A stretch of 57,947 nucleotides of DNA, from IMG/VR virus record IMGVR_UViG_3300038317_000024, positions 1-57,947 of that record; one strand, given 5' to 3'. The notes under the pieces are model-generated. The model was given only the letters and a program-made list of their open reading frames with translations, was not told the origin of the DNA and made no database searches. Positions 169 to 34,250 of the stretch are shown piece after piece. This DNA is from a virus (Duplodnaviria > Caudoviricetes). The position numbers and the translations under genes are program-made. The stretch's first letter is position 1; every line of letters starts with the position of its first letter.

Positions 169-1311
169 TTAATTTTTATGCTCTTTTTCCACCTTTTCAA
201 GCTCCGAAATGACAGAAGCTGGAGCTTCATTTTTAGGAACCACCTGACTATTCAGATCAGCAGCAACCTGCTCCATTTTATTTGGATACAGATGTGCATA
301 AGTAGACATAGCAACATCGACAGTATCGCCCAGGCGTTCAGCTACAGCAACAATCGAATAGCCAAGTTCAACCAGGAGCGCAGCATGGGAATGCCGGAGA
401 TCATGAATACGGATCCGTTTCACACCGGCCGCATTTGCAGCTTCAGTGAGAGCACGCCCCAGCGTACCTTTCTGGAAGTAGAAAATACGATCACAATCAT
501 CAATATCATAAAGGGCGCCAATATACCGGAGGACTTCATCGTAGAGAAAATCAGGCATTGAAGTATCCCGGTAGCTGTTTTCAGTTTTAGGAGGGCCATT
601 CGTATCCTCACCTTTGCGCCGGTGATGAGTTTTTTCTACGCGTGCAATCTTCGACGAAAGAATATCCGCAGGCTGCAGGGCAAGACACTCGCCCTCACGG
701 AAGCCAAGCCAGTACATGATCATGAAGGCAACCCGGAAACTCCAGTTTGAAACATGAGCCATAGCCTGATTGAATTCATCCAGCGTCCAGAATTTCATTT
801 TTCCTGCCTTTTTCTTTCCCATATACCCAGCAGGGCGGCACGGATTAGACCCAAGGTTATAAAACATGACCGCATAATTAAAGATAGCCGACAGACGGCT
901 ATTAATTGAACGGATATAGGTCTCGGCGTACTTTTTCCCGGTACGAGGATTTATAGCAGACATGACGGTGTTCTGCCAAGTACGAATCGTAACGGCGTCA
1001 ATTTCATTAACCTGCAGCTCACCGAAGTACGGCAGCAACCACTTTTTTATTACACTGTCGGCATTTCCCTGGGTACCTTCCCGGACACGGTGCTCGGCAT
1101 CGCCCTGGTAGAGTTCCACCAGAGAAGCGAAAGACATTTCACAGCTCCGGTTATTCTTCAGGAGGAATTCACGCTCGAAAGATTGGGCATCACCCTTTTT
1201 GTCAAAGCCTTCTTTTTTCTTTTTGCGCTTTTTCCCAGTCCAATCAGTATACCAGAAGGCAGCGTACCACTTTTTAGATCCGCTTTTAGTTTCGTATTTA
1301 TAAACAGGCAA
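169..1311 (-). CDS. int: Tyrosine integrase with N-terminal arm-binding domain
   Basis: GFREGE (R), HDLRHSH (HxxR), RLGD..STYAH (Y); N-terminal WYAAFWYTDWTGKKR; probable TTG start at 1311, 6 nt after GGAGGT. Confidence 0.93.
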   Translation of the reverse strand: MPVYKYETKSGSKKWYAAFWYTDWTGKKRKKKKEGFDKKGDAQSFEREFLLKNNRSCEMSFASLVELYQGDAEHRVREGTQGNADSVIKKWLLPYFGELQVNEIDAVTIRTWQNTVMSAINPRTGKKYAETYIRSINSRLSAIFNYAVMFYNLGSNPCRPAGYMGKKKAGKMKFWTLDEFNQAMAHVSNWSFRVAFMIMYWLGFREGECLALQPADILSSKIARVEKTHHRRKGEDTNGPPKTENSYRDTSMPDFLYDEVLRYIGALYDIDDCDRIFYFQKGTLGRALTEAANAAGVKRIRIHDLRHSHAALLVELGYSIVAVAERLGDTVDVAMSTYAHLYPNKMEQVAADLNSQVVPKNEAPASVISELEKVEKEHKN

Positions 1312-1330
1312 GCGCATACCTCCTTTCACA

Positions 1331-1370
1331 AAAGCCCCAGCCACCACAAAACGGCCAGGGCTTATTTTTT
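1331..1370. terminator. Hairpin/terminator between the PH-like gene and int
   Basis: AAGCCCCAGCC 1332-1342 / GGCCAGGGCTT 1353-1363, flanked by A- and T-runs. Confidence 0.5.
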
Positions 1371-3528: not shown

Positions 3529-3538
3529 GAGGCTTGAG

Positions 3539-5134: not shown

Positions 5135-5379
5135 CGACCAATATTATCAAGCTGCGCTTCATAAGGAACGGAGAGCCATCTGGAAGAGAATACACCTACT
5201 ACACGCCGGTAGAGGTAGCGGTAGGAGACACGGTAGAGATGGAAGCCAGAGAAGGCATAGCCAAAGGCATGGTAACCCAAATAAACGTACCAGAAGAAGA
5301 AATAGCACCTTTTAAGGACAGAGCAAAGACCATCATCGGAAAGGCGCAGATCAAAGAAGAGGAGGCAGCGGCAGAATGA
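5116..5379 (+). CDS. Hypothetical protein
   Basis: ORF with GGAGG RBS in early operon. Confidence 0.7.
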   Translation: MQENSIATNIIKLRFIRNGEPSGREYTYYTPVEVAVGDTVEMEAREGIAKGMVTQINVPEEEIAPFKDRAKTIIGKAQIKEEEAAAE

Positions 5380-5681: not shown

Positions 5682-5928
5682 GGCGGCAATATTCCTGGGG
5701 AGAACACCAACTGACGAGGAAATGACACAGGCACTACCCAGAGCCACAAAGAAGCTCCGCTGGATCATTGACAGAGATGGAGACCCCGACGGAATGAGAC
5801 GCCAGCCCTGGTACCTTGGAAAACTGGTAGAAGAAGCAATAATCGAAAACGAATTTTCACTGTACACCATGGCAAGATGCCTGGAAATACAAGCACGGAG
5901 AGAAGCGGCTGCAGCATGCGAAAATTAA
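5644..5928 (+). CDS. Hypothetical protein
   Basis: ORF with AGGAG RBS. Confidence 0.65.
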   Translation: MQAQLTDQLIRDEAAIFLGRTPTDEEMTQALPRATKKLRWIIDRDGDPDGMRRQPWYLGKLVEEAIIENEFSLYTMARCLEIQARREAAAACEN

Positions 5929-6026
5929 AAGGCCGCCCCATAAAGGGACGACCCAACCACACCAGAATTATATCGCCAAACAAGCAGCTTGTCAATCCGG
6001 AGCTGAAAAATTAGGAGGATGGCAAA

Positions 6027-7997: not shown

Positions 7998-7999
7998 AC

Positions 8000-8284
8000 A
8001 TGAACAGCGAAACAGCAAGGCAGGAAGGCGGACATTTAAAACTTTTTAAAATACTCGGCATGACACCAGAAGGGACATGCCCGGAATGCGCAACAGCCCA
8101 TCCAGAATGGCAGCCGCACAACCAGCAGAGCCTCACCTACCAATATAAATTCTACGACAAGCACGGACGCTTCCCGACATGGGCAGACGCAATGGAACAC
8201 TGCAGCGAAACCGTCAAGGGGCTCTGGAAGGCAGAGCTCCTCAAGAAGGGAATAAAGGTAGGCGAGCCGCAGCCCAAGATTTGA
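8000..8284 (+). CDS. Hypothetical protein (CxxC)
   Basis: CPECATAH..PHN; RBS. Confidence 0.7.
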   Translation: MNSETARQEGGHLKLFKILGMTPEGTCPECATAHPEWQPHNQQSLTYQYKFYDKHGRFPTWADAMEHCSETVKGLWKAELLKKGIKVGEPQPKI

Positions 8285-8293
8285 GGTGACAAT

Positions 8294-8482
8294 TTGGAAA
8301 ATGAGATATTCACAATCAAGGCAAGACGATGTAAGAGATGCGGAGGCATTCTAACCAGCAAGGCAGCGGTCGAAGAAGGATACGGCCACGTTTGCAAAAT
8401 GAAAACTCACGCAGAGGAAGAGGCGAAGAAGCCATTAGACGGCCAGATGAACCTGCTGGATTACTACAACAAGGAGGAATGA
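8294..8482 (+). CDS. Small zinc-finger protein (DUF6011-like)
   Basis: RCKRCGGILT..GYGHVC. Confidence 0.6.
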   Translation: MENEIFTIKARRCKRCGGILTSKAAVEEGYGHVCKMKTHAEEEAKKPLDGQMNLLDYYNKEE

Positions 8483-8484
8483 CC

Positions 8485-8670
8485 ATGCACAGCTTCAAGG
8501 ATAAACGCGGCGGGCTTTGGATAGCATGCTCCGAGTGCGAACGAGGAGGAAACGGCAGCGACCCAGACAAGTGCTCCTGTGGATGGAGAGTTAAAAAATT
8601 CAACCAAAAAGGGTGCTTTTCAGGAACCCTGATGGAGAAATACAAAGAACAACCAATAAAACAAATTTAA
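8485..8670 (+). CDS. Small Cys-rich hypothetical protein
   Basis: AGGAGG RBS; CSEC..CSCG..GCF. Confidence 0.55.
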   Translation: MHSFKDKRGGLWIACSECERGGNGSDPDKCSCGWRVKKFNQKGCFSGTLMEKYKEQPIKQI

Positions 8671-8683
8671 GGAGGAAACCACA

Positions 8684-9766
8684 ATGGCAACAAATCAAAA
8701 ACCAGCAACAAAGAACGAAACAGCCCTACAGACAGCAGAGGCTCAACCACTCGCAATGAGCGAGCGCTTCACAAACACGGTACTAAAGGAATTCGGAAGC
8801 AACGTAGCAGGAGCACTTCAGGTAACAGACTACCAGAGACAGCTGATCCAGGGGTACTTCATAGCCATAGACAGAGGGCTCAAGCTCGCAGAGGAAGCAA
8901 GAATCAGGAAGAACGAGAACAACAGAGACCACAAATACGATAACAACCTACCGGTAACATGGGGAAACACCAACCTGAACGACCTGGCCCTGGACGTAGT
9001 ACACTACGCGAGAATGGGGCTGGACATGATGCAGGACAACCACCTTTCACCGATCCCTTACAAGAACAACAAGACCAACAAGTACGACATAACCCTGATG
9101 CCAGGATACAACGGAATACAGTACATCGCAGAGAAATACGCGGTAGAGAAGCCGCTGGCCACAACCATAGAGCTGGTTTATTCGACAGACACCTTCAGGC
9201 CAATCAAGAAGAACAAAGACAACAGGGTGGAAAGTTACGAGTTCGAGATTAACAACGCCTTTGACAGAGGAACCATCGTCGGAGGCTTTGGATACATCGA
9301 ATACACCGACCCACTCAAAAACAAGTTAATCATAATGACCATGAGGGACATTGAGAAGAGAAAGCCAGCATACGCGGCCGCAGAGTTCTGGGGAGGTAAG
9401 GTAAAGAAATGGGAGAACGGAAAGCAGGTCGAGGTTGAATCAGACGGCTGGTTTGACGAGATGTGCCTGAAGACCATCAAGCGCGAAGTTTTCAGCGCGA
9501 AACACATGCCAAGAGACCCAAAGAAGGTAGACGACGCATACCAGTACATGAAGATGAGAGAAGCCAAATACGCAGAGATGGAAGCAGAGTCAGAGATAGA
9601 CAGTTTCGCAAACGCCACCATCATAGACACTACAACAGACGAGCCAAAACAGCTACAAAGACCAGGAGTAGACTTTGAAACCGGGGAAGTAATCGAGCCG
9701 GAACAAACCAAAATAAAAGCCGACGCAGCCCCGGTACAAGAAACCATGGCAGGCCCGAACTTCTAA
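8684..9766 (+). CDS. RecT-like single-strand annealing recombinase
   Basis: GLDMMQ..PIPY..MPGYNG..ELVYSTD..WFDEMCLKTIKR; located between ATPase and MBL nuclease. Confidence 0.75.
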   Translation: MATNQKPATKNETALQTAEAQPLAMSERFTNTVLKEFGSNVAGALQVTDYQRQLIQGYFIAIDRGLKLAEEARIRKNENNRDHKYDNNLPVTWGNTNLNDLALDVVHYARMGLDMMQDNHLSPIPYKNNKTNKYDITLMPGYNGIQYIAEKYAVEKPLATTIELVYSTDTFRPIKKNKDNRVESYEFEINNAFDRGTIVGGFGYIEYTDPLKNKLIIMTMRDIEKRKPAYAAAEFWGGKVKKWENGKQVEVESDGWFDEMCLKTIKREVFSAKHMPRDPKKVDDAYQYMKMREAKYAEMEAESEIDSFANATIIDTTTDEPKQLQRPGVDFETGEVIEPEQTKIKADAAPVQETMAGPNF

Positions 9767-10467
9767 TGGAGATCAAGGTACTCGCATCCGGCAGCAGCGG
9801 AAACGCCTATCGCATAAGCGACGGAACAACCAGCCTGCTGCTGGACGCGGGCATACCGCTAAAGGCCATACAGGTAGGGTGCGGATTTAAAGTGTCGCAG
9901 ATCAAGGGCTGCTTTGTGACACACAACCACCAAGACCACAGTAAGGCCGCCAAAGGGCTTATGAAGTTAGGGGTAGACATTTACACCAGTAAAGGGACAA
10001 TCGACGCGTGTGGGCTTATAGGACACCGTGCGCATCCATTAAAAGAGCTTCAGGAGATAACAGTAGGAACATTCAAGGTTTTACCTTTCGACGTTCAGCA
10101 CGACGCGCCGGAGCCGCTGGGTTTCCTTTTCACATCAGAAGAAACCAAAGAAAAGCTGCTTTATTTCACAGATACCTACTACATAAAATACCGGTTTCAA
10201 GGGCTGACCCACATCATGGCCGAATGCAACTACGACAAAGAAACGCTCCAAAGGAGCATAGACGCAGGATATATACCGATTGAGCTGGTGCCAAGATTGA
10301 TGAAGAGCCACATGAGCCTGGAACATTTTCTGGATCTGCTCAAAGCAAACGACCTGCACCAGGTAAGACAAATATACCTTTTGCACCTGAGTAACAACAA
10401 CAGCGACGAGCAACGCTTCAAAGAAGAGGTTCAGAAGCTCACAGGGGCAGAAGTGTACATTTGCTAA
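9766..10467 (+). CDS. Metallo-beta-lactamase-fold hydrolase (exonuclease-like)
   Basis: LASGSSGN, LLDAG, THNHQDH, HD, TDT, HLS motifs. Confidence 0.88.
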   Translation: MEIKVLASGSSGNAYRISDGTTSLLLDAGIPLKAIQVGCGFKVSQIKGCFVTHNHQDHSKAAKGLMKLGVDIYTSKGTIDACGLIGHRAHPLKELQEITVGTFKVLPFDVQHDAPEPLGFLFTSEETKEKLLYFTDTYYIKYRFQGLTHIMAECNYDKETLQRSIDAGYIPIELVPRLMKSHMSLEHFLDLLKANDLHQVRQIYLLHLSNNNSDEQRFKEEVQKLTGAEVYIC

Positions 10468-10499
10468 AGAGGTCAAACACAAAGGGGGTGACTTAACAA

Positions 10500-11471
10500 A
10501 TGGCACGAACGCGAAGCATAAAACCTGGATTTTTTGACAACGAAATTCTGGGCGACCTTCCACCACTAACCAGGCTTTTATTTATAGGGCTTTGGTGCAT
10601 AGCAGACAGAGAAGGAAGACTGGAAGACAAGCCAAGGAAAATAAAGAAGATGCTACTGGGATACGACGATGTGAACGCCGACGGAGTAGACAATATGCTG
10701 CAGGCACTACACGACAACGGCTTCATTTACAGATACAAGATCGAAGAAGAGGAATACATTCAAGTAGTCAATTTCACGAAGCATCAAAACCCACACATTA
10801 AAGAAAAAGGCAGTGAAATACCATCGCCAGAAGGATACCAAGCACCAAGCGACACGGTATACGGAGGAGGAAATCACCAAAGAACCATACAAGCACCAGA
10901 CTTGCACGGTGCTAACACAGTACAAGCCCCGCCTATTACCTTTAACCGATTACCTTCTACTGGAACCCTATCACCTACTACGCCAGATGGCGAAGACGGA
11001 GTGGGAGAAAAACAAGAGAACAATCAGCCGGGCGAGAGCCTAACGGTTCAAACGGCCGGAATGGCAGCGGGAAACGAAACCCGTCAACAGCCCTCCAAGA
11101 CCCTGGCTGAAAGAAGGTTCGACGAGTTCTGGGCAGCTTACCCGAAGAAGGTCGGGAAGAAAGCAGCGCAGACTTCATGGAATAAACTCAAACCAGATAC
11201 AGAGCTCCACGACAAGATCATGACGGCTATAGGTAGAGCCAGAGCGACAGAGCAATGGCTAAAAGAAGGCGGAAGATATATACCAAACCCAACAACCTGG
11301 ATAAACCAAGGTAGATGGGACGATGAATACGAGGAGGTGGCACCGAATGGAGTCAATAGCAAGTATTTTGACAGGAACAAACAGCAACCAGATACAGCAG
11401 CGAAGGGAAATGAGAGCAAACAGGATGCCCTCGCAGGATTTAAAACAATCGACGACTACGACTTCAAGTGA
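10500..11471 (+). CDS. Replication initiator / replisome organiser
   Basis: MARTRSIKPGFF..LFIGLWCIADREGR N-terminus; FDEFWAAYPKKVGK..YIPNPTTWINQGRWDDE C-terminus; internal repeats. Confidence 0.85.
   Translation: MARTRSIKPGFFDNEILGDLPPLTRLLFIGLWCIADREGRLEDKPRKIKKMLLGYDDVNADGVDNMLQALHDNGFIYRYKIEEEEYIQVVNFTKHQNPHIKEKGSEIPSPEGYQAPSDTVYGGGNHQRTIQAPDLHGANTVQAPPITFNRLPSTGTLSPTTPDGEDGVGEKQENNQPGESLTVQTAGMAAGNETRQQPSKTLAERRFDEFWAAYPKKVGKKAAQTSWNKLKPDTELHDKIMTAIGRARATEQWLKEGGRYIPNPTTWINQGRWDDEYEEVAPNGVNSKYFDRNKQQPDTAAKGNESKQDALAGFKTIDDYDFK
10879..10982 (+). repeat. Probable replication origin inside the initiator gene
   Basis: Five 11-bp units (e.g. CAAGCACCAGA) at 10879-10933, then seven 7-bp units (TATTACC-like) at 10934-10982. 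Confidence 0.65.
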
Positions 11472-22897: not shown

Positions 22898-23494
22898 ATG
22901 GCAAAGAAAAAGCCAATAGAACCAGAGAACCTATGGGATAGAATACCCGGAGAAACACCAAGGGAATACCAGAAGTTCTGTGCATTCAGAGACATGATCA
23001 GCGAGGACAAAGACCTGCGCAGCAGGAGAAGGAGTATCCCAAAGCTATGTGAACAGATAGGCTTTTCACCGGATCACCTCCGGAAGTTAAGCGCAAAGAA
23101 CGACTGGGTAAACAGAGCAGCAGCATACGACGCATACCTGGATGAACAGATCCGGGAGCAGAATGAAGCAGACATAATCAAAATGAAAAAAGACCATGCG
23201 CTGCTGGCCTCCCAGATGATAAAGAAAGCAGCCAAACGACTGCTAACCATACCAGAGGAGGAAATCGCGGCTTCCGACATCGTGCGCCTGGTCGATGTTG
23301 GAGTTAAAATCGAGAGATTGAGCCGAGGAGAGTCCACCGAAAATAGACAAATAAGCGGGGAGACAAAGGTAACTCACCAAGGCGAAATCAAAGTAAGGAG
23401 CCCAGGAGACCTCAACCTTTCCAGCTTGTCAGATGAGGAGCTCGTAGAGCTTGAACAGCTACTGGAAAAGCTACATACAGAGCCCGATATTTGA
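22898..23494 (+). CDS. Probable terminase small subunit
   Basis: WDRIPGET..F; W..RAAAYD; immediately upstream of and overlapping terL. Confidence 0.65.
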   Translation: MAKKKPIEPENLWDRIPGETPREYQKFCAFRDMISEDKDLRSRRRSIPKLCEQIGFSPDHLRKLSAKNDWVNRAAAYDAYLDEQIREQNEADIIKMKKDHALLASQMIKKAAKRLLTIPEEEIAASDIVRLVDVGVKIERLSRGESTENRQISGETKVTHQGEIKVRSPGDLNLSSLSDEELVELEQLLEKLHTEPDI

Positions 23495-24944
23495 TGTTGA
23501 CGCTCTGCAGGCGGCGCTTCAAAGGGAAAAGGCAGAGCGTAACCTTTCAGAGTACATCAAACAGGCGTGGAAGGTAATCGAACCAGGCACAACGTATGTA
23601 GACAACTGGCACATTGACCTGATAAGCGAATACCTGCAGGCAGTAGAAAACAGCGAGATATTGAGGCTTATAATCAACATCCCGCCTCGACACATGAAGT
23701 CCATACAGACAACGGTATGCTACCCGACATGGTCGTGGATCAAGAAGCCAGAGAAGCGCTTCATCAAGGTTTCATACAGCGACAGCTTATCCAGGAAGCA
23801 CAACGTACTATCAAGAGATATAATCACCAGCCCGTGGTACCAGGAGAACTGGGGAGACAAGTTCTCGCTTAAAGACGACGTGAACAGACAGAACGAGTTC
23901 AAGAACACCCACCACGGAATGATGTTCTCGACAAGCGTCGGCGGATCATTAACAGGTGAAGGCGGAGACGTAATCATCGTAGACGACCCACAGAACCCCC
24001 TAATGGCCAACAGTGAGGCTGAAAGAGAAGCGTCAATAGCTTTCTTTAAGAACACCCTTCAAACCCGTCTAAACGACCCAAAGAAGGGCGCAATCATAAT
24101 CATCATGCAGAGGTTACACGAGAACGACCTGACCGGCTACGTTTTAGCAGAGCAGCTGGGCTACGAGCATTTATGCCTACCTGCAGAGGCACCAGAGAAA
24201 ACAATAATAACCTTCCCGATAAGCAAGAAGGAAATCATCCGGGAAGAGGGAGACATCCTGAACCCACAGAGATATGACAAAGAAACACTGTCAGGCCTTA
24301 AGAAGTCCATGGGAAGCGTCCAATACGCTGGGCAGTTCCAGCAGACACCAGCGCCAGCAGAGGGCGTTATTTTTAAGAGAGAATGGCTGGGGAACTCATT
24401 CAAAGTGGTTCCATATCAGAACATGCTTATTCAGTCATGGGATATGGCATTCACTAAGAGCGAAGGCAGCGCCAAGGTGGCAGGCTTCGTCGTAGGAAGG
24501 CACGGCAGCGACATATACATTCACGACCTCGTAAACGAAAAGATGAGCTTCACAGAGAGCGTGACAGCCGTCCGGACACTTTCAGGCAAATGGCCAAAAG
24601 CCAGAGCGAAGGTAGTAGAGAATAAAGCAAATGGCCCGGCCATCGTTGACCTTTTGAAAAAAGAGATCCCGGGAATGGTAGAGTTCAACCCAAAGGGCAG
24701 CAAGGAGGAGCGTGCAATCAGCGTAACACCTTACTTTGAGGCGGGAAATATATGGTTCCCGGATCCAGCGACCCACCCATGGGTACACGATTTAATCAAC
24801 GACCTTTTGATATTTCCAAAGGGAACATACAAGGACACGGTGGACGCTTTAGTTCAGGCGATCCTTTATCTAATGGATAAGCCATCAATTACCGGCCCAC
24901 CAAAGACCGGAGGCCTTCAAAAGAACAGCTACTGGAAGAGATAA
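23451..24944 (+). CDS. terL: Terminase large subunit
   Basis: INIPPRHMKS, GDVIIVDDP, IMQRLHENDL, QQTP, SWDMAF, ENKANG, DTVDA. Confidence 0.92.
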   Translation: MNSYWKSYIQSPIFDVDALQAALQREKAERNLSEYIKQAWKVIEPGTTYVDNWHIDLISEYLQAVENSEILRLIINIPPRHMKSIQTTVCYPTWSWIKKPEKRFIKVSYSDSLSRKHNVLSRDIITSPWYQENWGDKFSLKDDVNRQNEFKNTHHGMMFSTSVGGSLTGEGGDVIIVDDPQNPLMANSEAEREASIAFFKNTLQTRLNDPKKGAIIIIMQRLHENDLTGYVLAEQLGYEHLCLPAEAPEKTIITFPISKKEIIREEGDILNPQRYDKETLSGLKKSMGSVQYAGQFQQTPAPAEGVIFKREWLGNSFKVVPYQNMLIQSWDMAFTKSEGSAKVAGFVVGRHGSDIYIHDLVNEKMSFTESVTAVRTLSGKWPKARAKVVENKANGPAIVDLLKKEIPGMVEFNPKGSKEERAISVTPYFEAGNIWFPDPATHPWVHDLINDLLIFPKGTYKDTVDALVQAILYLMDKPSITGPPKTGGLQKNSYWKR

Positions 24945-25328: not shown

Positions 25329-25562
25329 ATGGATAGTAAAGCATTTCAATTAAGAGCACGCTTCATGCGAGAGGCGGAGGAAAAAGGAACAACAGCACAA
25401 ATGATGATAGCAGCCGTTAGATTACCAACCGGAGCCGTTGAGGTTATCACAAACACCGCGCTGATACCAACAAAGATAGAGTATTACAACACCGCATACG
25501 ATGAGGAGTTCAAGCTCAAAGCAAATCACAATGTCCAGATAGTGGGCTTCATGTTTGTGTAA
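25329..25562 (+). CDS. Hypothetical protein
   Basis: GAGGAG RBS; 77 aa. Confidence 0.65.
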   Translation: MDSKAFQLRARFMREAEEKGTTAQMMIAAVRLPTGAVEVITNTALIPTKIEYYNTAYDEEFKLKANHNVQIVGFMFV

Positions 25563-25597: not shown

Positions 25598-26980
25598 ATG
25601 GGAAATAACAGCTTTAAAGAAATGGGACGCCTGGGCCAGAAGAGATACGGCGGCTTTTTTTACGAGGAGTTCTTAAAAGAGCTTCAGGGAAAGAAGGGCG
25701 TGGAAGTCTTCAGGGAGATGAGCGAGAACGACGATGTGATCGGTTCGATCCTTTATGCAATCGAAATGCTAATCAGGCAGGCAACATGGAACGTCCAACC
25801 GGCAGGCAGCACGCCAAAAGATGAAGAAGCAGCAGAATTCATATACCAATGCATGGACGACATGCAGGACACATGGACAGACACCATATCGGAAATCCTG
25901 TCCTTTTTGACGTTTGGATGGAGCGCTCACGAACTCGTATACAAACGCCGCGCAGGCAAGAGCAGAGATCCGAAGCTGAACAGCAAATACAGCGATGGAT
26001 TGATAGGATGGCAGAAACTACCCATTAGAGCACAGGAGACCCTGTGGGAGTGGATATACGATGATGGAGATAATCTCCTGGGAATGTCGCAGATGCCACC
26101 GCCAAAGTTTGAAATTCTTGAAATACCAATCGAAAAGTTGATGATATTCAGGACAAAGAGTAGGAAGGGCAGCCCAGAAGGAAGGAGCATTCTACGTAAC
26201 GCTTACCGCAGCTGGTACTTCAAGCGCAGGATCCAGGAGATAGAAGGAATCGGAGTAGAAAGAGACCTGGCCGGTTTTCCAGTGTTGACAGCGCCAGAAG
26301 GAATGAACATCTGGGACGACGACGATCCGGACATGGCAGCAATAAGAGCTGCGGCCGACGCAATCGTTCAAAATGTGAGAAGAGACAGCCTCGAAGGCTT
26401 ATCAATGCCATCCGGATGGAAGCTGGAGCTATTAAGCACAGGAGGACGCCGACAATTTGACACAAATGCAATCATCGAAAGATACGACACCAGGATAGCA
26501 ATGACAGTCCTCGCAGATTTTGTATTATTAGGCCACCAACAGGTGGGAAGCTTCGCACTTTCAAGCGACAAGACGGAACTCTTCGCAATGGCGGTAGGAG
26601 CATACCTGGACATTATATGCGAGACATTCAATAACAAGGCAATCCCGGCACTTATAGACCTAAACGGCGAACACTTCAACGGAATAACAGACTACCCAAC
26701 ACTTGAACATGGGGATGTTGAAGGAGCAGACATTCAGGCACTGGCGGCATACATCAAGGATATGACAGGCGTAGGCGTGCTGGTACCAGACGATGGAATA
26801 GAAGACTTTGTAAGAGAGGCAGCCGGACTACCAGAGAGACTGGACGACAGCATGGCACCAAACCCAAGGCAGCCAAAGAAAAAACCAGGAACAGAAGCAG
26901 ATCCAGACGACCTGGGAGAGCTTGACGACGACGAGGAAGCCGTGAAAAAGGCGAAAGAGAGACTGGGGAGGTATGATTAA
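25598..26980 (+). CDS. Portal protein (DUF935 / Mu gp29-like)
   Basis: FGWSAHELVY, PEGRSILRNAY, GVERDLAGFP, RYDTRIA, GSFALS; position after terL. Confidence 0.85.
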   Translation: MGNNSFKEMGRLGQKRYGGFFYEEFLKELQGKKGVEVFREMSENDDVIGSILYAIEMLIRQATWNVQPAGSTPKDEEAAEFIYQCMDDMQDTWTDTISEILSFLTFGWSAHELVYKRRAGKSRDPKLNSKYSDGLIGWQKLPIRAQETLWEWIYDDGDNLLGMSQMPPPKFEILEIPIEKLMIFRTKSRKGSPEGRSILRNAYRSWYFKRRIQEIEGIGVERDLAGFPVLTAPEGMNIWDDDDPDMAAIRAAADAIVQNVRRDSLEGLSMPSGWKLELLSTGGRRQFDTNAIIERYDTRIAMTVLADFVLLGHQQVGSFALSSDKTELFAMAVGAYLDIICETFNNKAIPALIDLNGEHFNGITDYPTLEHGDVEGADIQALAAYIKDMTGVGVLVPDDGIEDFVREAAGLPERLDDSMAPNPRQPKKKPGTEADPDDLGELDDDEEAVKKAKERLGRYD

Positions 26981-29900
26981 TGATCAGGATCAAGAAATCA
27001 ATTCACCGACACCCGGTACTCAAAGCTAAAAAGAAAAGCGCAGCTGCAGAGGACGTCCTCGAAAAGCTCAATTCATTTCTTGATGCAACGGAACCAGAAC
27101 CGGTTTATTTCCTCACCAGGATGTGGAATGATCAGCAGCAGGCAGTAACATACAAAGAACTCCGGGAGGCAATACAAAGCGGACACCTGGATGAGAAGAC
27201 CCTGCAGGCATGGCAAAACGACTATGCTAATTTTGTTAATGAGAAATTGAAACCGGTATGGACAGAAGCAATGACGGCGGCCAATGCAGACCTGATGGCC
27301 AAGCACCCGGATTATTTCTTTGATCCAATGAGCCAGGAAGTGCTCAAATGGACAAATGAGCACGGAGCCCAGTGGGTATCTTCGATATCAGACGAGCAAA
27401 AGGAAGCCATAACAGCAATGCTGGATAATTCATTCAGCGGAGATTTTACAGTTGATGAACTGGCCAGGGCAATACGCCCGACCGTAGGACTGAACAAAAC
27501 CCAGTCAAAGGCGAACGTCAACTATTACAAACACATAAAAGAGAGCTTGCTGGAGAATAACCCAGGCATGAAAGAGACCACGGCCGAGAAGAGGGCGAGG
27601 GATGCAGCCCAGAAGTACGCAGCCAAGCAGCACAGACAAAGAGCTTTCACAATAGCAACCACAGAAATGGCCTTCGCTTATAACAAGGGAGCTGACGAAG
27701 GAATGAAACAGGCCCAGGCGCAGAACCTCATAGGCAAGGTAAAAAAAGTATGGAGCACAGCAGCCGATGAAGGCGTGTGTTCAATATGCGGAGGATTAGA
27801 CGGAACTGAAATAGATATGGAGGAAGATTTCGACTTCAAAGGGCATACACTGTATAGCGGGCAGAAGCAAACACCCCCAGCTCACCCGCGCTGCAGATGT
27901 GCCGTTCTTTACATTGAGACGGAACCACCAAAGTATCAACCAGAGCCGGAGCCAGATGTAATCCAAACATGGAGCCAGCAAGACCAGGTACCCGTACCAG
28001 AACCACCGGAACCAGAACTACCGAAAATACCAGAGGCACAGAAAATGCCAAAAGGAATGAAGTACAACGGCAAGCCAAACCTCGGACAGACTGGAGAGAT
28101 CCATTCATACCTTGACGAACTGGGAGACGAGTGGTTATTCAAACCAGCACAGACCAAAAGCGGAAATCCGGAAGCCTTCAGGGCATACGTCCAGGAGGCA
28201 GGATATAAAGTCCAAGGAATAGTGGATCCGGAAACAGCAGTACCGGTAGGAACAGGAGAGCTCGGCGGCAAGTTTGGAGCTTTTCAGAAGAGAGTAATGA
28301 CTGTAGACGACACGGTCGACCTGAAGCATTGGCAATACACCAGCGACCAACTACCACCCGGAGCAGCTTCACAGCTTCAAAGGGAACATGTCACAGACTG
28401 GCTGATGGGGAACTTCGATAGTCACGGCGGAAACTTCGTGATGGACGACGCAGGAAAGCTCATAGGATTAGACAAAGAGCAATCATTCAGGTACATCAAC
28501 CAAATAGGCGGCCAGCAAATGAGCTACACCTACCACCCGAACTCAACATATGGAGAGACAGAGCCGATTTATAATACACTGTTTCGTAGGTTTGCAAAGG
28601 GAGAGATTGACCTCGACCTTCAGGACACCCTGACATTTGTTAAGCGGGTAGAAGCCATACCAGATACGCAGTATCGGGAAATATTCAGAGGTTATGCAGA
28701 GGAACTACGAGGTAAAGGTAAAGCTGCAGAGGAACTTCTTGATGAGATCGTCGACAAAAAGGGAAGATTAAGAGAAGACTACCGACAGTTTTATTCAGAC
28801 CTTCTGACCGAGAGAACCGGAAAGAAGCAGGCGTTCATATGGGCCGATGAAGCAGCGCAGCACATGCAGCAGCCATTGACAGCAGTAACGCACAGCCCGG
28901 ACGTCTTAAAAAAGATGAACACGGCAGAGTTAAAGCAGTTGGCAAAGCAAAAGCAGATCCCGTACTACAACAACATGAATAAGACCCAGCTGGTCACCAG
29001 CATATCAGATCCAATAAAGGCACCCGACATGAGCGCCCAGGTAAGAGATAGACTGGCAGCCAATGAAGCGGCCAGGAAGGCAGCAGAAAAAGCACCGGTA
29101 CCGCGAAAGGTGAAAGAGATCCTACCGGCCGACGAGATATTCGCAGACATGTCGAAGCTACCAGACAGCAGACTGGGCGTACCGATAAAGAGTGACAAAG
29201 GAAACGTCGAAGGCTTGAACCTTACCGGCCGACGAATGCAGCTTCTGGACGACGCATCCGGAAGCACATACGAAGTATATGAGGTTTCAGGAAAGCTGAC
29301 AAAAAACACATGGTCAAAGACCTGGGATAAAATGAAGCCGATAGGAGACAACAGCGGAGAATTATTCTTTGAGGCCGCAGACGACGCGAAGAAGCTCTAC
29401 ACTTCCAAAGTTGACCTGGGAGCGTCCATTCGGACAATGACAGTGACCGATGGAGAAACGTCCTTCGAACTTTATATCGACGGTCAGACAAGGCAATACA
29501 ACGGCTGGCGTGGATTTTTCAGAATGAGAACGCCGGTAACATCAAATGGAGCTGTAGATGCAACCAACATGAAAAATATACTTAAAAAGCTGGAACTTGA
29601 CGATTTGATAACAAGTCCAGACGGAGAAGCAGAGATGATCCTAAAGAAGACCCGCCTTGTTTGGCAGAATGCACCGAACCGGATCCAGGAATTAGATGGA
29701 TTGACGCCAGAACAAATCCCGACTAAACTGGATATGATAATAAAGCAAGAGAAAATCGACCTAAAACGTGTAAACAACATGAAGATGGTCAAAGTTTTTG
29801 ATGGATATCAGACCTACATCGAGGAAGGAATACAAGCTACATACGAGAAGGCAGGCCTGAAATACGTATGGACAGGAATACCAGACGCAGACGACATCGT

Positions 29901-30402
29901 CAAAGTCATTCAGAGCCCTGGTTTATTATCAAATAACAACCGTTTCAAAGCAGGAATGAAGAGAGTTGGAGCCAGCCCGGTGGAAGATTTCAGAACCGGA
30001 GGCAGCGATAATGTGTTCACGAGGATAGGCGTCAAGAATAAAAACAACCCTCGATTTGACGACAGCTACCGAGGAAGCAGGTACCGCATTCTTATTGATC
30101 CAAAAGAGATGCAGCGAACAGACTGGTACGCATTCGACAGTGACTCATTCGGAAATTCAGATGCGTCAAGGCTGGCAAGCAGACCATCGCCGGTTGAATT
30201 TATAAAGAATATGGCCACAAGCTACCGCAGCGGAAATGAAATCATGTTCCGACATGGAATAGCGAAGGAGAGCTTCATCGGAATATCATGCCAGAGCAAC
30301 TCATTAAAAGCAGAGCTACTGGATAAATTCAAGAAGGCAAACATTACTGCAGTAAACGGAATACCAATCGAAGACTTCGTAAAGGTGGGATCGACAATAT
30401 GA
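26980..30402 (+). CDS. MuF minor head protein fused to a kinase-like and further C-terminal domains
   Basis: RAFTIATTE, KVWSTAAD..CSIC, PPAHPRCRC (MuF); Pro-rich linker; WLFKP, DWLMGNFDSHGGNF, IGLDKEQSF; Rho-N-like LKKMNTAELKQLAK. Confidence 0.8.
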   Translation: MIRIKKSIHRHPVLKAKKKSAAAEDVLEKLNSFLDATEPEPVYFLTRMWNDQQQAVTYKELREAIQSGHLDEKTLQAWQNDYANFVNEKLKPVWTEAMTAANADLMAKHPDYFFDPMSQEVLKWTNEHGAQWVSSISDEQKEAITAMLDNSFSGDFTVDELARAIRPTVGLNKTQSKANVNYYKHIKESLLENNPGMKETTAEKRARDAAQKYAAKQHRQRAFTIATTEMAFAYNKGADEGMKQAQAQNLIGKVKKVWSTAADEGVCSICGGLDGTEIDMEEDFDFKGHTLYSGQKQTPPAHPRCRCAVLYIETEPPKYQPEPEPDVIQTWSQQDQVPVPEPPEPELPKIPEAQKMPKGMKYNGKPNLGQTGEIHSYLDELGDEWLFKPAQTKSGNPEAFRAYVQEAGYKVQGIVDPETAVPVGTGELGGKFGAFQKRVMTVDDTVDLKHWQYTSDQLPPGAASQLQREHVTDWLMGNFDSHGGNFVMDDAGKLIGLDKEQSFRYINQIGGQQMSYTYHPNSTYGETEPIYNTLFRRFAKGEIDLDLQDTLTFVKRVEAIPDTQYREIFRGYAEELRGKGKAAEELLDEIVDKKGRLREDYRQFYSDLLTERTGKKQAFIWADEAAQHMQQPLTAVTHSPDVLKKMNTAELKQLAKQKQIPYYNNMNKTQLVTSISDPIKAPDMSAQVRDRLAANEAARKAAEKAPVPRKVKEILPADEIFADMSKLPDSRLGVPIKSDKGNVEGLNLTGRRMQLLDDASGSTYEVYEVSGKLTKNTWSKTWDKMKPIGDNSGELFFEAADDAKKLYTSKVDLGASIRTMTVTDGETSFELYIDGQTRQYNGWRGFFRMRTPVTSNGAVDATNMKNILKKLELDDLITSPDGEAEMILKKTRLVWQNAPNRIQELDGLTPEQIPTKLDMIIKQEKIDLKRVNNMKMVKVFDGYQTYIEEGIQATYEKAGLKYVWTGIPDADDIVKVIQSPGLLSNNNRFKAGMKRVGASPVEDFRTGGSDNVFTRIGVKNKNNPRFDDSYRGSRYRILIDPKEMQRTDWYAFDSDSFGNSDASRLASRPSPVEFIKNMATSYRSGNEIMFRHGIAKESFIGISCQSNSLKAELLDKFKKANITAVNGIPIEDFVKVGSTI

Positions 30403-30734
30403 TCAATCAAAGAGCCGTGTACGTATTCAAACCGGCTGGAGCGAAAGACTTCACCGGGATAGCGCTGGACGTACACATTCACAAAGGGAACATACGGTTT
30501 TTCGATACCAACAGAGGCCATGAGCTACCAGGCAAGGTTACAGAGGAGACAGAGAAGGGCTTCACCTTCACACCCACTGGAGCCGCACCGGGAGAATGGC
30601 AATTCAAGGTACTTACAATCGAAGAGTTCAAGCGCAAATATTACAAGCTGGCCGAAGGCGGACAAACGATGGCGGCCAAATTAAATACCACAGACGACCT
30701 CCACCAATGGTACCGGAGGGAGTTCAAGATTTAA
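30399..30734 (+). CDS. Small protein coupled to the MuF fusion (candidate immunity protein)
   Basis: ATGA overlap with MuF stop; followed by terminator-like hairpin. Confidence 0.6.
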   Translation: MINQRAVYVFKPAGAKDFTGIALDVHIHKGNIRFFDTNRGHELPGKVTEETEKGFTFTPTGAAPGEWQFKVLTIEEFKRKYYKLAEGGQTMAAKLNTTDDLHQWYRREFKI

Positions 30735-30764
30735 GGCGAGGAGAGAACCTCGTCTTTTGCTTTT
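30733..30764 (+). terminator. Hairpin terminator after the MuF/small-gene pair
   Basis: AAGGCGAGG / CCTCGTCTT stem followed by TTGCTTTT. Confidence 0.55.
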
Positions 30765-30781: not shown

Positions 30782-31258
30782 ATGATTAAGTTCAGCGACC
30801 TGGTGAGCGTCCAAAAAGCCAAGGCGGAGCCGAAAGCAAAGACACCAGGAACAGTGAAGGGACGCTTCAAGATACAAAAATCAGACGACGACAAAATGCT
30901 GGCGTTCGGATGGGCCAACGTAGCGATTACAGCCGGAGGCAAGCAAATAGAAGACTACCACGAAGACATGATAGATCCAGAAGAACTGGAACAGGCAGCG
31001 TACAGCTTCGTAGAGTTTTATCGCGAAGGTGGAGAGATGCACGAGCGCGGAGGATGCGCAGTCCTCATAGAGAGTATGGTATTCACAAAAGAGAAAATGA
31101 ACGCCATCGGAATAACCGAAGGCACACTGCCTGAAGGCTGGTGGATCGGCTTCAAAGTAACCGACCCGGACGTCTGGGACAAAGTCAAAGACGGAACCTA
31201 CCCGATGTTTAGCATTGAGGGAGAGGCAGTACGTGAGGAAATCACGGAGGAAGAATAA
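30782..31258 (+). CDS. XkdF-like putative prohead protease
   Basis: FGWA..D..ELEQAAYSF..GEMH..ESMV..GWWIGFKVTD..WDKVKDG.Y.MFSIEG. Confidence 0.78.
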   Translation: MIKFSDLVSVQKAKAEPKAKTPGTVKGRFKIQKSDDDKMLAFGWANVAITAGGKQIEDYHEDMIDPEELEQAAYSFVEFYREGGEMHERGGCAVLIESMVFTKEKMNAIGITEGTLPEGWWIGFKVTDPDVWDKVKDGTYPMFSIEGEAVREEITEEE

Positions 31259-33227: not shown

Positions 33228-34250
33228 ATGAAAGGAACAAGCGTTTCTAATCTTCAGGTAGAAATTGCAAAGGGCTGGAAGCCCAATAACTACCTGACTA
33301 ACATGAGCATGGCCTACTTCCAAGAGGAGGGAGACTTTGTAGCACCTTCAATATTCCCAATTTGCCCCGTAGGATTAAGCTCAAGCTATTACTACACATT
33401 CAGCAAGGCTGACCTTGCGAGAGACAACGTAAGCAGAAAACCTGCCTTCGGAAAGGTTAGCCCTGCTTTAATGGGACAAACAGACAACACATACAAATGC
33501 GAGGTAGACCAGATAATCGTCGGAATCGACCAGATCGACTCTTTGAATTACCAAAGAAGCAGAGCACCAGGAGTAGCAGATCCAAGAAGAGCAAAAGTAA
33601 GATTTGCAACAGAGCAGTTAAAACTCCACTTGGATATCATATTCGCGCAGCACTTCTTCAAACCGGCTGCATGGGGCAACGTATGGACAGGCGCAGCTGC
33701 AGCTGACGAAGCACAAAAGAAATTCCTGAAATTCAGCGATGCAAACTTCGATCCTGTTAACTTCTTCGACGCAAGAATGAAGGAGATCAAACAGAACGGC
33801 CGCAGAAAGCCAAACAGACTGGCACTTGGTGTTGATGCATTCAATGCATTAAAGAACCACCCAGACATCATCGAAAGAGTTAAGTACACCGGCAGCACAG
33901 CAAACCCTGCTATCGTAACAACCGCAGCTCTTGCAGCAATCCTGCAAATTGAACAGGTGAGAGTGCTTGAAAGCACATACAATGCAGGCGGCATCGGGGA
34001 AGAGGATATGCAGTTTGTATGCGCAACAGACGGAGCGCTTCTTTGCTACGCAACAGACAACGCTGCAATCGACGAGCCAAGTGCAGGATATATCTTCACA
34101 TGGGATATGTTAGGCAATGGCCAGTACACAGCACTTGATCAGTATGAAGGCGAGAAGGGAACACATTCAGAGTTCGTGGAAGGCTTAATGAGCACTGACA
34201 TGAAGAAAACCTCTGATGATTTGGCGATTTATTTCGACCAATGCATCTAA
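33228..34250 (+). CDS. Major capsid protein
   Basis: 340 aa after decoration gene; YLTNMSMAYFQ..FVAPSIFP, LKNHPDIIERVKY. Confidence 0.8.
   Translation: MKGTSVSNLQVEIAKGWKPNNYLTNMSMAYFQEEGDFVAPSIFPICPVGLSSSYYYTFSKADLARDNVSRKPAFGKVSPALMGQTDNTYKCEVDQIIVGIDQIDSLNYQRSRAPGVADPRRAKVRFATEQLKLHLDIIFAQHFFKPAAWGNVWTGAAAADEAQKKFLKFSDANFDPVNFFDARMKEIKQNGRRKPNRLALGVDAFNALKNHPDIIERVKYTGSTANPAIVTTAALAAILQIEQVRVLESTYNAGGIGEEDMQFVCATDGALLCYATDNAAIDEPSAGYIFTWDMLGNGQYTALDQYEGEKGTHSEFVEGLMSTDMKKTSDDLAIYFDQCI

Follow-up and report, generated by a model that had tools for sequence, protein, structure and literature searches.

Genes and domains at the locus

The window, that is, the whole stretch of 57,947 nucleotides that was analysed, is a whole virus record (IMGVR_UViG_3300038317_000024) and is 95% complete. 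The phage is temperate as judged by its integrase match, and carriage by a temperate phage is also one of the marks of MuF polymorphic toxins. The terminase, the portal, a gene coding for a MuF-kinase-ADP-ribosyltransferase (ART) protein, an ORF of 111 aa, the protease, the scaffold, and the major capsid follow one another in this order on one strand. The features are listed below.

169..1347, minus strand: integrase (phrog_1, E 2.5e-63)
25598..26980, plus strand: portal protein gene (phrog_113, E 1.7e-98)
26980..30402, plus strand: predicted MuF-kinase-HeH-ART polyvalent head protein, whole gene, 1140 aa (full-length relatives have about 1100-1150 aa)
27028..27972, plus strand: MuF / SPP1 gp7-like minor head domain, aa 17-331 (Pfam PF04233 and PHROGs)
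27919..28035, plus strand: Pro/Glu-rich linker, aa 314-352 (sequence)
28057..28866, plus strand: predicted atypical protein-kinase-like domain, aa ~360-629 (AlphaFold2, Foldseek against the PDB, residue conservation)
28906..29004, plus strand: Rho_N motif (helix-extended-helix, SAP-like), aa 643-675 (Pfam PF07498)
29179..29535, plus strand: predicted beta-rich domain without a family, aa 734-852 (model mce1421e5734e, strands E45-163)
29548..29775, plus strand: predicted helical segment joining the beta-rich and ART domains, aa 857-932 (model, H168-243)
29779..30387, plus strand: predicted DarT-like ADP-ribosyltransferase-fold domain, aa 934-1136 (model pLDDT 92.8, Foldseek against the PDB)
30399..30734, plus strand: 111-aa ORF, predicted immunity/partner protein of the ART domain
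30782..31258, plus strand: putative head maturation protease-like gene (weaker PHROG matches and position)

The MuF-kinase-ART gene lies directly after the portal gene, with whose stop its start ATG shares 1 nt, and the start ATG of the 111-aa ORF overlaps its own stop (ATGA). A preliminary description of this DNA had ended the gene at 29010, which spans the first 677 aa only; the ORF reaches 30402. As for the ORF at 30782..31258, its strongest match is phrog_1530, labelled DNA methyltransferase (E 2.9e-33), and the head maturation protease families phrog_3017, 34096, and 33677 score lower; we read it as protease-like because of these weaker matches and because of its position.

By family score and by its position after the portal, the ORF at 26980..30402 codes for a Phage_Mu_F / SPP1 gp7 minor head protein. 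Pfam Phage_Mu_F (PF04233) matches aa 206-309 (nt 27595-27906) with 44.7 bits against a cut-off of 29.6 (E 2.5e-11), PHROGs 28652, 2468, and 3517 (head morphogenesis/MuF) match aa 15-331 with E-values from 1e-31 to 1e-64, and TIGR01641 scored 26.7 on the MuF region, under its cut-off of 39.65. The motif HPRCRC, at which the end of the MuF domain had been placed (near aa 310), is present with H302 and C305. The linker that follows is poorly conserved and is gapped in alignment A3. Further downstream, the Rho-N-like motif that had been noticed at about 28906-29005 is matched by Pfam Rho_N (PF07498) with 26.2 bits against a cut-off of 24.9, and a search with the A4 profile, covering the protein over its full length, hits the N-terminal part of Rho in PDB 3l0o (E 0.0033). 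The motif is probably a nucleic-acid-binding or linker element.

The kinase-fold domain and its relation to known kinases

The preliminary description had pointed to a set of kinase motifs behind the MuF domain, and all of them are at the places given: the Pro-rich linker at aa 314-352, LGQTG at 368-372, WLFKP with K388, AYVQEAGY at 402-409, DWLMGNFDSHGGNF with D480, H482, and N485, and IGLDKEQSF with D498. The elements of the domain are thus a Gly-rich loop (G369), K388, E406, Q436, the loop D480-x-H482-x-x-N485, and the metal-binding D498-K-E-Q. The D-x-H-x-x-N form of the catalytic loop is known from atypical kinases. These motifs go beyond chance. K388, E469, D473, D480, and D498 are invariant in 53 aligned relatives (29-60% identity). 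In a wider count, on 149 aligned sequences among the best 150 family representatives, each of K388, D473, D480, and D498 is retained by 147 sequences and Q436 by 142; position 485 has N in 115 and Q in 33, that is, N or Q in 148 of the 149. The alpha-C glutamate E406 is kept in just 86 and is Q in 24, and position 482 is Lys, as in the eukaryotic-type D-x-K-x-x-N loop, in 49.

Structure prediction and a fold search had been proposed as a check of this region, and a kinase fold was predicted. The AlphaFold2 model of aa 341-642 (pLDDT 94.2, pTM 0.91) has a bilobal kinase fold with a helical C-lobe of about 140 aa, and Foldseek gave at least 500 PDB matches at E<=1e-3, all of them kinases among the matches listed. 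On this model, aa 341-642 belongs to the protein-kinase-like (PKL) fold superfamily, and phosphotransfer is predicted. The two outcomes named beforehand as speaking against a kinase, namely, no kinase fold and catalytic residues that are not conserved in homologues, did not occur, with K388, D480, and D498 each conserved as given above. The best PDB match is CtkA of H. pylori (PDB 3akl/3akk; E 5.6e-6, TM 0.51-0.55 over about 300 columns, 13-14% identity), and it comes without a match at the level of sequence; since a TM of about 0.5 is moderate, the closest known kinase is still distant. CtkA is a Ser/Thr kinase encoded on the tfs3 ICE (PMC5536186), so that both proteins are encoded by mobile elements, but CtkA is free-standing whereas the domain here is fused to a head protein. 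Apart from CtkA, the top PDB matches listed comprise protein kinases as well as the kinase domains of lanthipeptide synthetases. Among viral structures (BFVD) the best match is the homologous region of the Mycobacterium phage Onyinye 'ADP-ribosyltransferase' (TMq 0.70), followed by phage proteins auto-named PI3K/PI4K catalytic domain.

The domain had been called HipA/PI3-4-kinase-like. As a likeness of class this stands, for the D-x-H-x-x-N loop followed by a metal-binding Asp is common to these kinases and to our domain, but membership in either family is not shown, the Pfam thresholds of both being missed. PI3_PI4_kinase (PF00454) on aa 467-503 scored 14.4 bits (E 0.036) against a cut-off of 27.1 and was matched at E<=0.01 by 2 of 21 relatives; among the PDB fold matches listed, PI3K ranks 49 with a TMq of 0.40. 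This score and this fold match do not support the PI3_PI4_kinase identity. HipA_C (PF07804) had no match at E<=1 on the MuF-kinase-ART protein and reached 18.2 bits against a cut-off of 30.5 on the relative Aikoy gp15. When aligned by hhalign to E. coli HipA, D480, H482, N485, and D498 pair with the HipA catalytic loop and the downstream Asp, at a probability of 6.3%. HipA is absent among the PDB fold matches listed, and a HipB- or HipS-type antitoxin was not found as a neighbour, the sole adjacent small gene tracking the ART and not the kinase. The HipA identity is not supported, given the lack of a HipA_C match, of a HipA N-terminal domain, and of a HipB-like neighbour, and the low hhalign probability. 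More generally, no Pfam kinase family reaches its cut-off on the domain; the kinase profile found 0 matches at E<=10 among PDB sequences, and the A4 profile found Rho only.

These weak family signals bear on the question whether the domain could be a small-molecule or lipid kinase (PI3/4-kinase, LepB_N, aminoglycoside/choline kinase-like) instead of a protein kinase. Possible substrates would then be a nucleotide that signals in a defence system, a precursor of the cell envelope, or a derivative of ADP-ribose produced by the neighbouring ART. Its atypical catalytic loop would fit, and so would the names given to its viral structural neighbours and the only Pfam signals, those of PI3_PI4_kinase and, in Aikoy gp15, of HipA_C. 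The leads from the Atlas are a PI3_PI4_kinase cluster (38% of members) and LepB_N clusters (0.93-0.94), and the fusion of the domain to the same DarT-like ART in 63 of the best 150 relatives could indicate a joint chemistry. However, the Pfam and Atlas signals are all below threshold or mere leads, the best solved match, CtkA, is a kinase by its PDB title and a Ser/Thr kinase by PMC5536186, the other top matches listed are as described above with PI3K far down, and Lys stands at position 482 in a third of the relatives (49 of 149). We consider a small-molecule or lipid kinase unlikely and take the domain to be a candidate protein kinase.

The ADP-ribosyltransferase-fold domain and the 111-aa protein

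The first reading of this DNA overlooked the C-terminal ART domain and the partner gene downstream. DarT structures (M. tuberculosis, Thermosipho, E. coli C7, and Thermus) hold PDB ranks 1-5 for the model of this domain (prob 0.99-1.00, TMt 0.47-0.58). Its invariant residues are R988, S999, D1003, F1013, R1015, Y1035, R1046, D1048, D1055, and N1086-E1087, and R988/S999/E1087 are spaced by +11 and +99, close to the +11 and +100 of R52/S63/E152 given for DarT1 in PMC11543638. Pfam on aa 681-1140 had no match at E<=10, thus neither DarT (PF14487) nor another ART family nor any family for the beta-rich domain, and the Atlas score of the ART domain to the DarT cluster was just 0.86. On the model, then, aa ~934-1136 is an ART fold closest to DarT, without sequence membership in PF14487, and its activity is predicted.

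In DarTG the toxin DarT is neutralised by the product of the adjacent gene, and the 111-aa protein is predicted to have the same role here. Every informative related locus (69 of 69) has the 111-aa ORF behind the ART domain, seven relatives with MuF only lack it, and it also lies beside the kinase-less MuF-ART gene of a related phage (L086). A complex model of this protein with the ART domain gave a median ipSAE of 0.89 against 0.00 for the best control; among solved complexes 58 of 80 reach this mark and among mismatched pairs 2 of 110, a calibration that applies only roughly because the score comes from self-built unpaired alignments. At least 79% of the contacts agree between runs, and the pLDDT of the partner is at least 86. 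In the model the 111-aa protein covers the conserved site of the ART and also touches residues 811-816 and 837 of the beta-rich domain. It has no PHROG family match, and by size, the only ground on which this was judged, it is too short for a macrodomain or a NADAR hydrolase. The complex model and the gene pairing lead us to predict that it is the cognate immunity/partner protein of the ART. Unlike DarT, the ART here is fused to a virion protein, and its partner is predicted to block the site directly.

Modularity, delivery and meaning

The kinase family has 1288 representatives (50%-identity clusters) at E<=1e-3, on proteins of 270 to 6330 aa, and the relatives include Clostridia-type and actinobacterial phages. 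Among the best 150 relatives the kinase domain is internal in 89, last in 38, and stand-alone in 12, counts that may include fragments from short contigs. Since it is last or stand-alone in some relatives, it behaves like an independent effector. It is found without an ART in a MuF-plus-kinase protein (P0009), and it co-occurs with three ART families: the DarT-like one here, ADPrib_exo_Tox in mycobacteriophages, and DRAT. Conversely, the ART is found without the kinase in the related phage L086 and in six clusters of 719-807 aa. Among relatives with the same backbone, MuF stands by itself at 7 loci, bears other extensions at 4, and is joined to the ART without the kinase at 1; others have MuF-kinase-ART. 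As the places of toxin and immunity gene are taken by the ART and its partner gene, the kinase is a dispensable module in the interior of this protein. A multi-enzyme cargo of about 830 aa had been regarded as unusual. That it is multi-enzyme is strengthened by the second enzyme domain, the ART; that it is unusual is not borne out, for the MuF-kinase-ART architecture is common to more than 100 protein clusters and 80 viral loci, and cargoes of this general kind are described in PMC5576092 and PMC5512222.

The product of the ORF at 26980..30402 can be classed among the MuF polymorphic toxins or the polyvalent proteins; the general kind is already known and the kinase module is unstudied. Predictions from genomes exist for MuF proteins that end in a toxin and for polyvalent proteins packaged in the head, kinase domains included (PMC5576092, PMC5512222). 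In the MuF polymorphic toxins described by Jamet et al. 2017 (PMC5576092; e.g., E. faecalis V583 EFV MuF-ART) a common N-terminal MuF domain is joined to a variable C-terminal toxin, often an ADP-ribosyltransferase, with a small gene directly downstream, a portal neighbour, and a temperate phage as carrier. Our protein likewise has a MuF N-terminus with a variable C-terminus and, on computational support, a downstream immunity gene; it differs by the extra internal kinase, the DarT-like fold of its ART, and the size of its cargo. The word 'kinase' occurs 0 times in the main text of PMC5576092. Polyvalent proteins (Iyer et al. 2017, PMC5512222) likewise have several effector domains on one virion-packaged polypeptide, with MuF and ART as usual partners, and here MuF, a kinase fold, and an ART fold are on one ORF. 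The polyvalent kinase clade of that paper, mainly from Verrucomicrobia-Chlamydia and Bacteroidetes (pro)phages, has lost the whole C-terminal subdomain, whereas our domain keeps its helical C-lobe, a comparison made by description only. Similar in make-up are the 'minor capsid and ADP-ribosyltransferase fusion' proteins of mycobacteriophages (McProf gp54, Onyinye/Aikoy gp15-16; tblastn E 1e-12 to 7e-28), which have the same kinase-like module in a large head-associated protein ending in an ART; their terminal ART is ADPrib_exo_Tox, and the N-terminus of McProf is VG15 and not Pfam MuF. The kinase module goes unmentioned in the annotation deposited for them.

We computed how the domains fold, which residues are conserved, how the modules combine, the order of the genes, and, for the small protein, its co-occurrence and its predicted binding; that the protein is packaged and ejected, that both enzymes are active, and what they act on, we infer. 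The best explanation, and a likely one, is that the protein is a MuF-anchored two-enzyme cargo whose ART is silenced by the 111-aa protein and which is ejected with the DNA to act on the host. The MuF domain would hold an effector cargo of about 830 aa at the portal region of the capsid, made up of the kinase-fold module and the C-terminal DarT-like ART, which the Rho_N motif and the beta-rich domain keep apart in the predicted architecture. In the producing cell the 111-aa protein would cover the conserved site of the ART and keep it silent. At the next infection the head protein would be expelled along with the DNA, the kinase would phosphorylate targets in the host (most likely Ser/Thr residues of proteins), and the ART would modify DNA or protein, so that the host may be taken over, its defence countered, or the host poisoned. 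Because a DarT-type DNA modifier co-injected with phage DNA would endanger that DNA, the target of the ART is uncertain.

It is improbable that the kinase-fold domain is no effector at all and is a nucleotide-sensing/autophosphorylating regulatory or scaffold module, or a pseudokinase, that controls folding, packaging, release, or activation of the ART. Its internal place, here and in the 89 relatives, with the terminal toxin position left to the ART and its partner, its company with ARTs of three families, and the moderate conservation of the alpha-C Glu would agree with such a role, but the near-complete conservation of the Lys, the catalytic Asp, the Asn/Gln, and the metal-binding Asp is not expected of a pseudokinase, and each occurs without the other: the ART with its partner gene without the kinase, and the kinase without any ART, terminal or stand-alone. 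Least probable of all is that the protein is not delivered and acts late in the producing cell (superinfection exclusion, envelope modification) or is cleaved off and discarded at head maturation, since, despite the late-acting immunity role argued by Benler et al. (PMC8008677) for a HipA-family kinase between the portal and capsid genes of Gratiaviridae, the protease-like gene two genes downstream, and the unfolding that 1140 aa would need to pass the tail, the enzymes form one polypeptide with MuF, a portal-located head component (PMC5576092, PMC5512222), and a dedicated predicted inhibitor of the ART would have little point if the producing cell were the target.

With delivery as the preferred reading, one may ask how far it extends. 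It is a tentative and rather doubtful generalization that tailed phages across Clostridia, Actinobacteria, and haloarchaeal viruses routinely deliver this Pfam-less atypical kinase family from the head as an effector, and that it works as a functional pair with the ARTs of three unrelated families to which it is fused. If it is true, both enzymes may hit the same host target, the kinase may phosphorylate the ADP-ribosyl adduct against host hydrolases, or, alternatively, a defence pathway may be disabled during the first seconds after infection. According to PMC8008677 and PMC5512222, the phage protein kinases that have been characterised are those of T7 and 933W; neither is known to be carried in the capsid. 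The module described here has a complete catalytic set, is without a Pfam family or a sequence-detectable solved relative, and is usually joined to virion proteins and ARTs. Labels in deposited records such as 'minor capsid and ADP-ribosyltransferase fusion' miss an entire enzyme domain. If the kinase is active and injected, it would represent a new class of first-strike phage effectors, and the ART with its predicted 111-aa inhibitor would be a defined pair in which to study how a DarT-like enzyme is silenced during assembly.

The gene and its place among the head genes

The open reading frame for the 1140-aa protein begins with an ATG that shares one base with the stop codon of the portal gene, and its own stop codon overlaps the ATG of a 111-aa ORF. 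The preliminary description had picked out this same ORF but gave coordinates only as far as aa 677. That so long an ORF stems from misassembly or a frameshift was rejected, since dozens of independent contigs keep it at full length. The window (57,947 bases) is an entire IMG/VR virus record with an estimated completeness of 95%, and the genes concerned are as follows.

169..1347, minus strand: integrase
23451..24944, plus strand: large terminase
25598..26980, plus strand: portal
26980..30402, plus strand: gene for the 1140-aa protein
30399..30734, plus strand: 111-aa ORF, directly after the gene for the 1140-aa protein
30782..31258, plus strand: head maturation protease-like gene
between the protease-like and major head genes, plus strand: scaffold-like gene
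33228..34250, plus strand: major head protein

Pfam places Phage_Mu_F at aa 206-309 (44.7 bits against a cut-off of 29.6) and Rho_N at aa 643-675 (26.2 bits against 24.9), and PHROGs assign aa 15-331 to head-morphogenesis/MuF families; NCBIfam gave only a sub-threshold gp7 match. All the motifs that the preliminary description had listed, from the end of the MuF part through the Gly-rich loop, K388, D480, N485 and D498 to the Rho-N-like motif, were found at the residues it named.

Other features of the region were also recorded. The top PHROG for the 158-aa protease-like protein (30782-31258, plus strand) is phrog_1530, 'DNA methyltransferase' (E 2.9e-33), which is matched only at the C-terminal end of its profile, and the weaker matches are head maturation proteases; the methyltransferase label probably stems from a fusion protein within that PHROG. 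A 77-aa ORF between terminase and portal (25329-25562, plus strand) is kept in 16 of the 80 related loci searched, at 62-97% identity. Nearly all long ORFs of the window lie on the plus strand, which has a very strong A-over-T skew (0.23-0.45 in each 2-kb bin from 2 kb on).

The kinase-like module

When aa 341-642 was used as the query against 1.84 billion representative proteins, 1288 matches were obtained at E<=1e-3 and 252 at E<=1e-30, and these span 114 to 6330 aa in length. K388, E469, D473, D480, and D498 are invariant in A2, our alignment of 53 relatives that are 29-60% identical to the query. Conservation in the wider set is given below.

Conservation of kinase-module residues (best 150 of 1288 matches aligned to the HMM of A2; 149 aligned)
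K388: kept in 147/149
D473: kept in 147/149
D480: kept in 147/149
D498: kept in 147/149
Q436: kept in 142/149
G369: kept in 135/149
Position 485: N in 115/149, Q in 33/149
Position 482: H in 94/149, K in 49/149
E406: E in 86/149, Q in 24/149

The AlphaFold2 model built on A2 (pLDDT 94.2, pTM 0.91) has a predicted kinase fold. At E<=1e-3, Foldseek found at least 500 PDB matches, and those listed are all kinases. CtkA of H. pylori leads them (3akl/3akk; E 5.6e-6, TMq 0.50-0.52, TMt 0.52-0.55, 13-14% identity), kinase domains of lanthipeptide synthetases hold ranks 20 and 30, rank 49 is PI3K with TMq 0.40, and eukaryotic-type kinases (RIPK2, p38, JNK, EphA2) gave TM values of about 0.3-0.4; the list of matches does not include HipA. 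In a comparison with predicted viral structures, the homologous region of a 1340-aa 'ADP-ribosyltransferase' of Mycobacterium phage Onyinye ranks first (TMq 0.70), followed by proteins of phages and haloarchaeal viruses with the automatic name 'PI3K/PI4K catalytic domain-containing', by a 'portal protein' of 1201 aa, and by large proteins of Gordonia phages. The preliminary description had named two outcomes as counting against it, that no kinase fold is predicted or that the catalytic residues are not conserved in homologues; since the fold is predicted and K388, D480, and D498 are conserved, neither occurred. That the module is instead a small-molecule or lipid kinase is, in our estimate, unlikely, and that it is a regulatory or pseudokinase module serving the transferase, given the residues kept in the table, we consider more improbable still.

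The module belongs to no curated kinase family. No Pfam kinase model reached its cut-off in the 1140-aa protein or in the 21 and 53 relatives scanned: PI3_PI4_kinase aligns to aa 467-503 with 14.4 bits (E 0.036, cut-off 27.1) and matches 2 of the 21 relatives at E<=0.01, and Pfam on aa 341-657 alone gave nothing above threshold. Against PDB sequences, phmmer with the whole protein found no kinase or ADP-ribosyltransferase (ART), the kinase profile A1 had no match at E<=10, and the profile of A4, which spans the whole protein, found only Rho N-termini and no kinase or ART. Membership of HipA was rejected because hhalign gave only 6.3% probability against E. coli HipA; the sole aligned stretch pairs D480, H482, and N485 with the HipA catalytic loop and D498 with its downstream Asp. 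In the protein atlas, whose matches are leads only, unnamed clusters rank first, PI3_PI4_kinase makes up 38% of the members of one cluster, and two LepB_N clusters score 0.93-0.94. On these outcomes the name 'HipA/PI3-4-kinase-like', used in the preliminary description, seems fair for the type of catalytic loop, while membership does not follow from it. Two clades from earlier computational papers are near to it, as compared by description from passages of these papers. In Iyer et al. 2017 (PMC5512222), phage polyvalent proteins contain a distinctive kinase clade, mainly of Verrucomicrobia-Chlamydia and Bacteroidetes, whose active-site residues are intact, whose last N-lobe strand has a conserved Gln, and which is said to lack the C-lobe. 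The 'Tox-Peptide Kinase' of Zhang et al. 2012 (PMC3482391) has the motifs YKP[KR], DxHxEN, and DxE, which resemble F-K-P, D-x-H-x-x-N, and D-K-E of the module.

The DarT-like C-terminal domain and its predicted 111-aa partner

The model of aa 690-1140, built from 56 aligned relatives (A4), has pLDDT 92.8 and pTM 0.89 and divides as follows.

aa ~734-852: beta-rich domain
aa ~857-932: helical segment
aa ~934-1136: alpha/beta domain

DarT DNA ADP-ribosyltransferases occupy PDB ranks 1-5 for this model in Foldseek (probability 0.99-1.00), among them M. tuberculosis 7yk3 (E 6.6e-4), Thermosipho 7omu, E. coli C7 DarT1 8baq (TMt 0.58), and Thermus 7omv; tRNA 2'-phosphotransferase is at rank 40. Pfam on aa 681-1140 found no ART family, and the atlas leads (OspC 0.91, DarT 0.86, a phage PARP/DarT cluster 0.86) are weak but concordant. 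Residues invariant in the domain include R988, S999, D1003, F1013, R1015, Y1035, R1046, D1048, D1055, and N1086-E1087. R988, S999, and E1087 are spaced +11 and +99, and R52, S63, and E152 of DarT1, as numbered in a passage of PMC11543638, +11 and +100; a correspondence to the DarT1 triad by residue-number spacing is suggestive only.

A homologue of the 111-aa protein begins 0-135 nt past the ART-coding end in all 69 informative related viral loci, that is, those where the ART is complete and at least 350 nt lie downstream of it; of the 80 loci fetched, 10 were left out without a complete ART match at a contig end and one without downstream DNA. Loci on the same backbone with other forms of the gene served as natural controls (portal identity about 52-78% where the portal matched; L143 had no portal match). 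MuF-ART loci were searched for with A5, an alignment of six kinase-less proteins, which was needed as the kinase-less P0224 as a single query found none.

Forms of the MuF gene in related viral loci and the 111-aa homologue
MuF only, 311-338 aa (L084, L135, L143, L145, L146, L149, L150): absent in 7/7
MuF with other extensions, 446-638 aa (L103, L132, L138, L139): absent
MuF-middle-ART without kinase, 819 aa (L086): present, E 4e-15
Kinase plus ART, 1135 aa (L151, L152): present

Therefore, the 111-aa gene tracks the transferase and not the kinase or the head. A role as a head-assembly factor was rejected because the seven MuF-only relatives, which have the same portal, protease, and scaffold genes, are without it; the protease gene follows directly in these loci wherever downstream sequence exists. 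Complex prediction for aa 714-1140 with the 111-aa protein gave ipSAE values of 0.73, 0.89, and 0.91 (median 0.89) and 0.00 for the best of three controls. The mark of 0.89 is attained by 58 of 80 solved complexes and 2 of 110 mismatched pairs, a calibration that holds roughly here, where our own alignments were used. The runs share at least 79% of contacts, with partner pLDDT at least 86. The confident interface covers 994-1003 (S999, D1003), 1013, 1052-1059 (D1055), and 1084-1085 and adjoins N1086-E1087, so that the surface predicted to be bound is the conserved face of the ART domain. As modelled, the pair looks like a polymorphic toxin and the immunity protein that goes with it.

Ahead of the 111-aa ORF a promoter scan found nothing convincing. 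A terminator-like hairpin (30733-30756, plus strand; 9 pairs, 5 G-C, T-rich tail; a consensus match only) begins at the final bases of this ORF and would separate the effector and partner genes from the protease gene. In three of the four loci with other extensions, other small ORFs stand in place of the 111-aa gene: 85 aa in L103 (4706-4963, after a 572-aa protein), 92 aa in L132 (4485-4763, after 513 aa), and 81 aa in L139 (4275-4520, after 446 aa), each directly downstream. Such combinations are candidates for alternative toxin-immunity pairs carried by the same head-gene backbone.

An exchangeable cargo and its proposed action

Among the best 150 of the 1288 kinase-module matches, the module occupies an internal position in 89, the C-terminus in 38, and the N-terminus in 11, and stands alone in 12, counts that may include contig-end fragments. 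A DarT-like ART is found in 63 of these 150 and MuF in 30, by our own HMMs (from A4 and A3, respectively) and in a set that favours relatives of the query. In 53 shorter members, the partner domains found by Pfam include ADPrib_exo_Tox (3), Rho_N (3), MuF (2), and DRAT, InPase, and 2H phosphoesterase (1 each). MuF is fused straight to the C-terminal region in six protein clusters of 719-807 aa; P0009 (629 aa) is MuF plus kinase with nothing beyond, and P0074 is a minor head protein plus kinase. Mycobacteriophage proteins annotated 'minor capsid and ADP-ribosyltransferase fusion' contain the module too, their terminal ART being instead ADPrib_exo_Tox. Thus the kinase behaves like a self-contained cargo module that very often, though not in every case, comes together with an ART.

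In many relatives of about 960-1030 aa (P0022, P0024, P0028, P0041, P0047, and others) the module lies in 2-3 separate stretches over at least 700 aa, which suggests tandem modules or large insertions. The giant relatives P0117 (3181 aa), P0248, and P0017 join MuF and the module to more domains: P0117 has DUF3626 (aa 401-517), and the other two have an intein splicing domain. Loci L014 and L015 are one 75,937-base IMG/VR contig that has the portal/MuF-effector region twice, about 56 kb apart (6-11422 and 56452-67868), which fits a concatemer or assembly through a terminal repeat.

The multi-enzyme cargo had been called unusual in the preliminary description; our results bear against this, as such architectures are common and were conceptually anticipated. 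Earlier work had already predicted toxin-bearing MuF proteins, ARTs packaged in the head, and polyvalent proteins that include kinase domains, and Gratiaviridae have, according to a passage of PMC8008677, a HipA-family kinase between portal and capsid genes; therefore the general kind, an effector-carrying head protein, is already known. In the literature searched we did not find the architecture of MuF with a kinase domain or of a minor head protein with HipA, for which supplements (Iyer 2017 File S2, Jamet 2017 tables) may list relatives, nor the kinase family defined as a widespread module, a MuF protein that joins it to a DarT-like ART, the 111-aa partner, or a study of McProf with ADP-ribosyltransferase.

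The computed evidence consists of domain identities, conserved catalytic residues, the position in the head module, gain and loss of modules, and a co-inherited partner predicted to bind the ART. We hold the domain assignments with high confidence, and the whole reading, a head-placed, DNA-delivered cargo of kinase and ART with the 111-aa protein as protector, we consider fairly probable. Its mechanism is drawn from what passages of PMC5576092 and PMC5512222 say of known MuF proteins. The MuF part would set a few copies at the portal, and the cargo would exit together with the DNA; the kinase may then phosphorylate host targets and the ART modify DNA or protein, while, up to packaging, the 111-aa protein would shield the producing cell and perhaps also the phage DNA under replication. 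Action confined to the producing cell is very improbable in our judgement. The finding is worthwhile because what appears, by its residues, to be a large, catalytically intact, and unnamed kinase family in phage virion proteins is directly testable.
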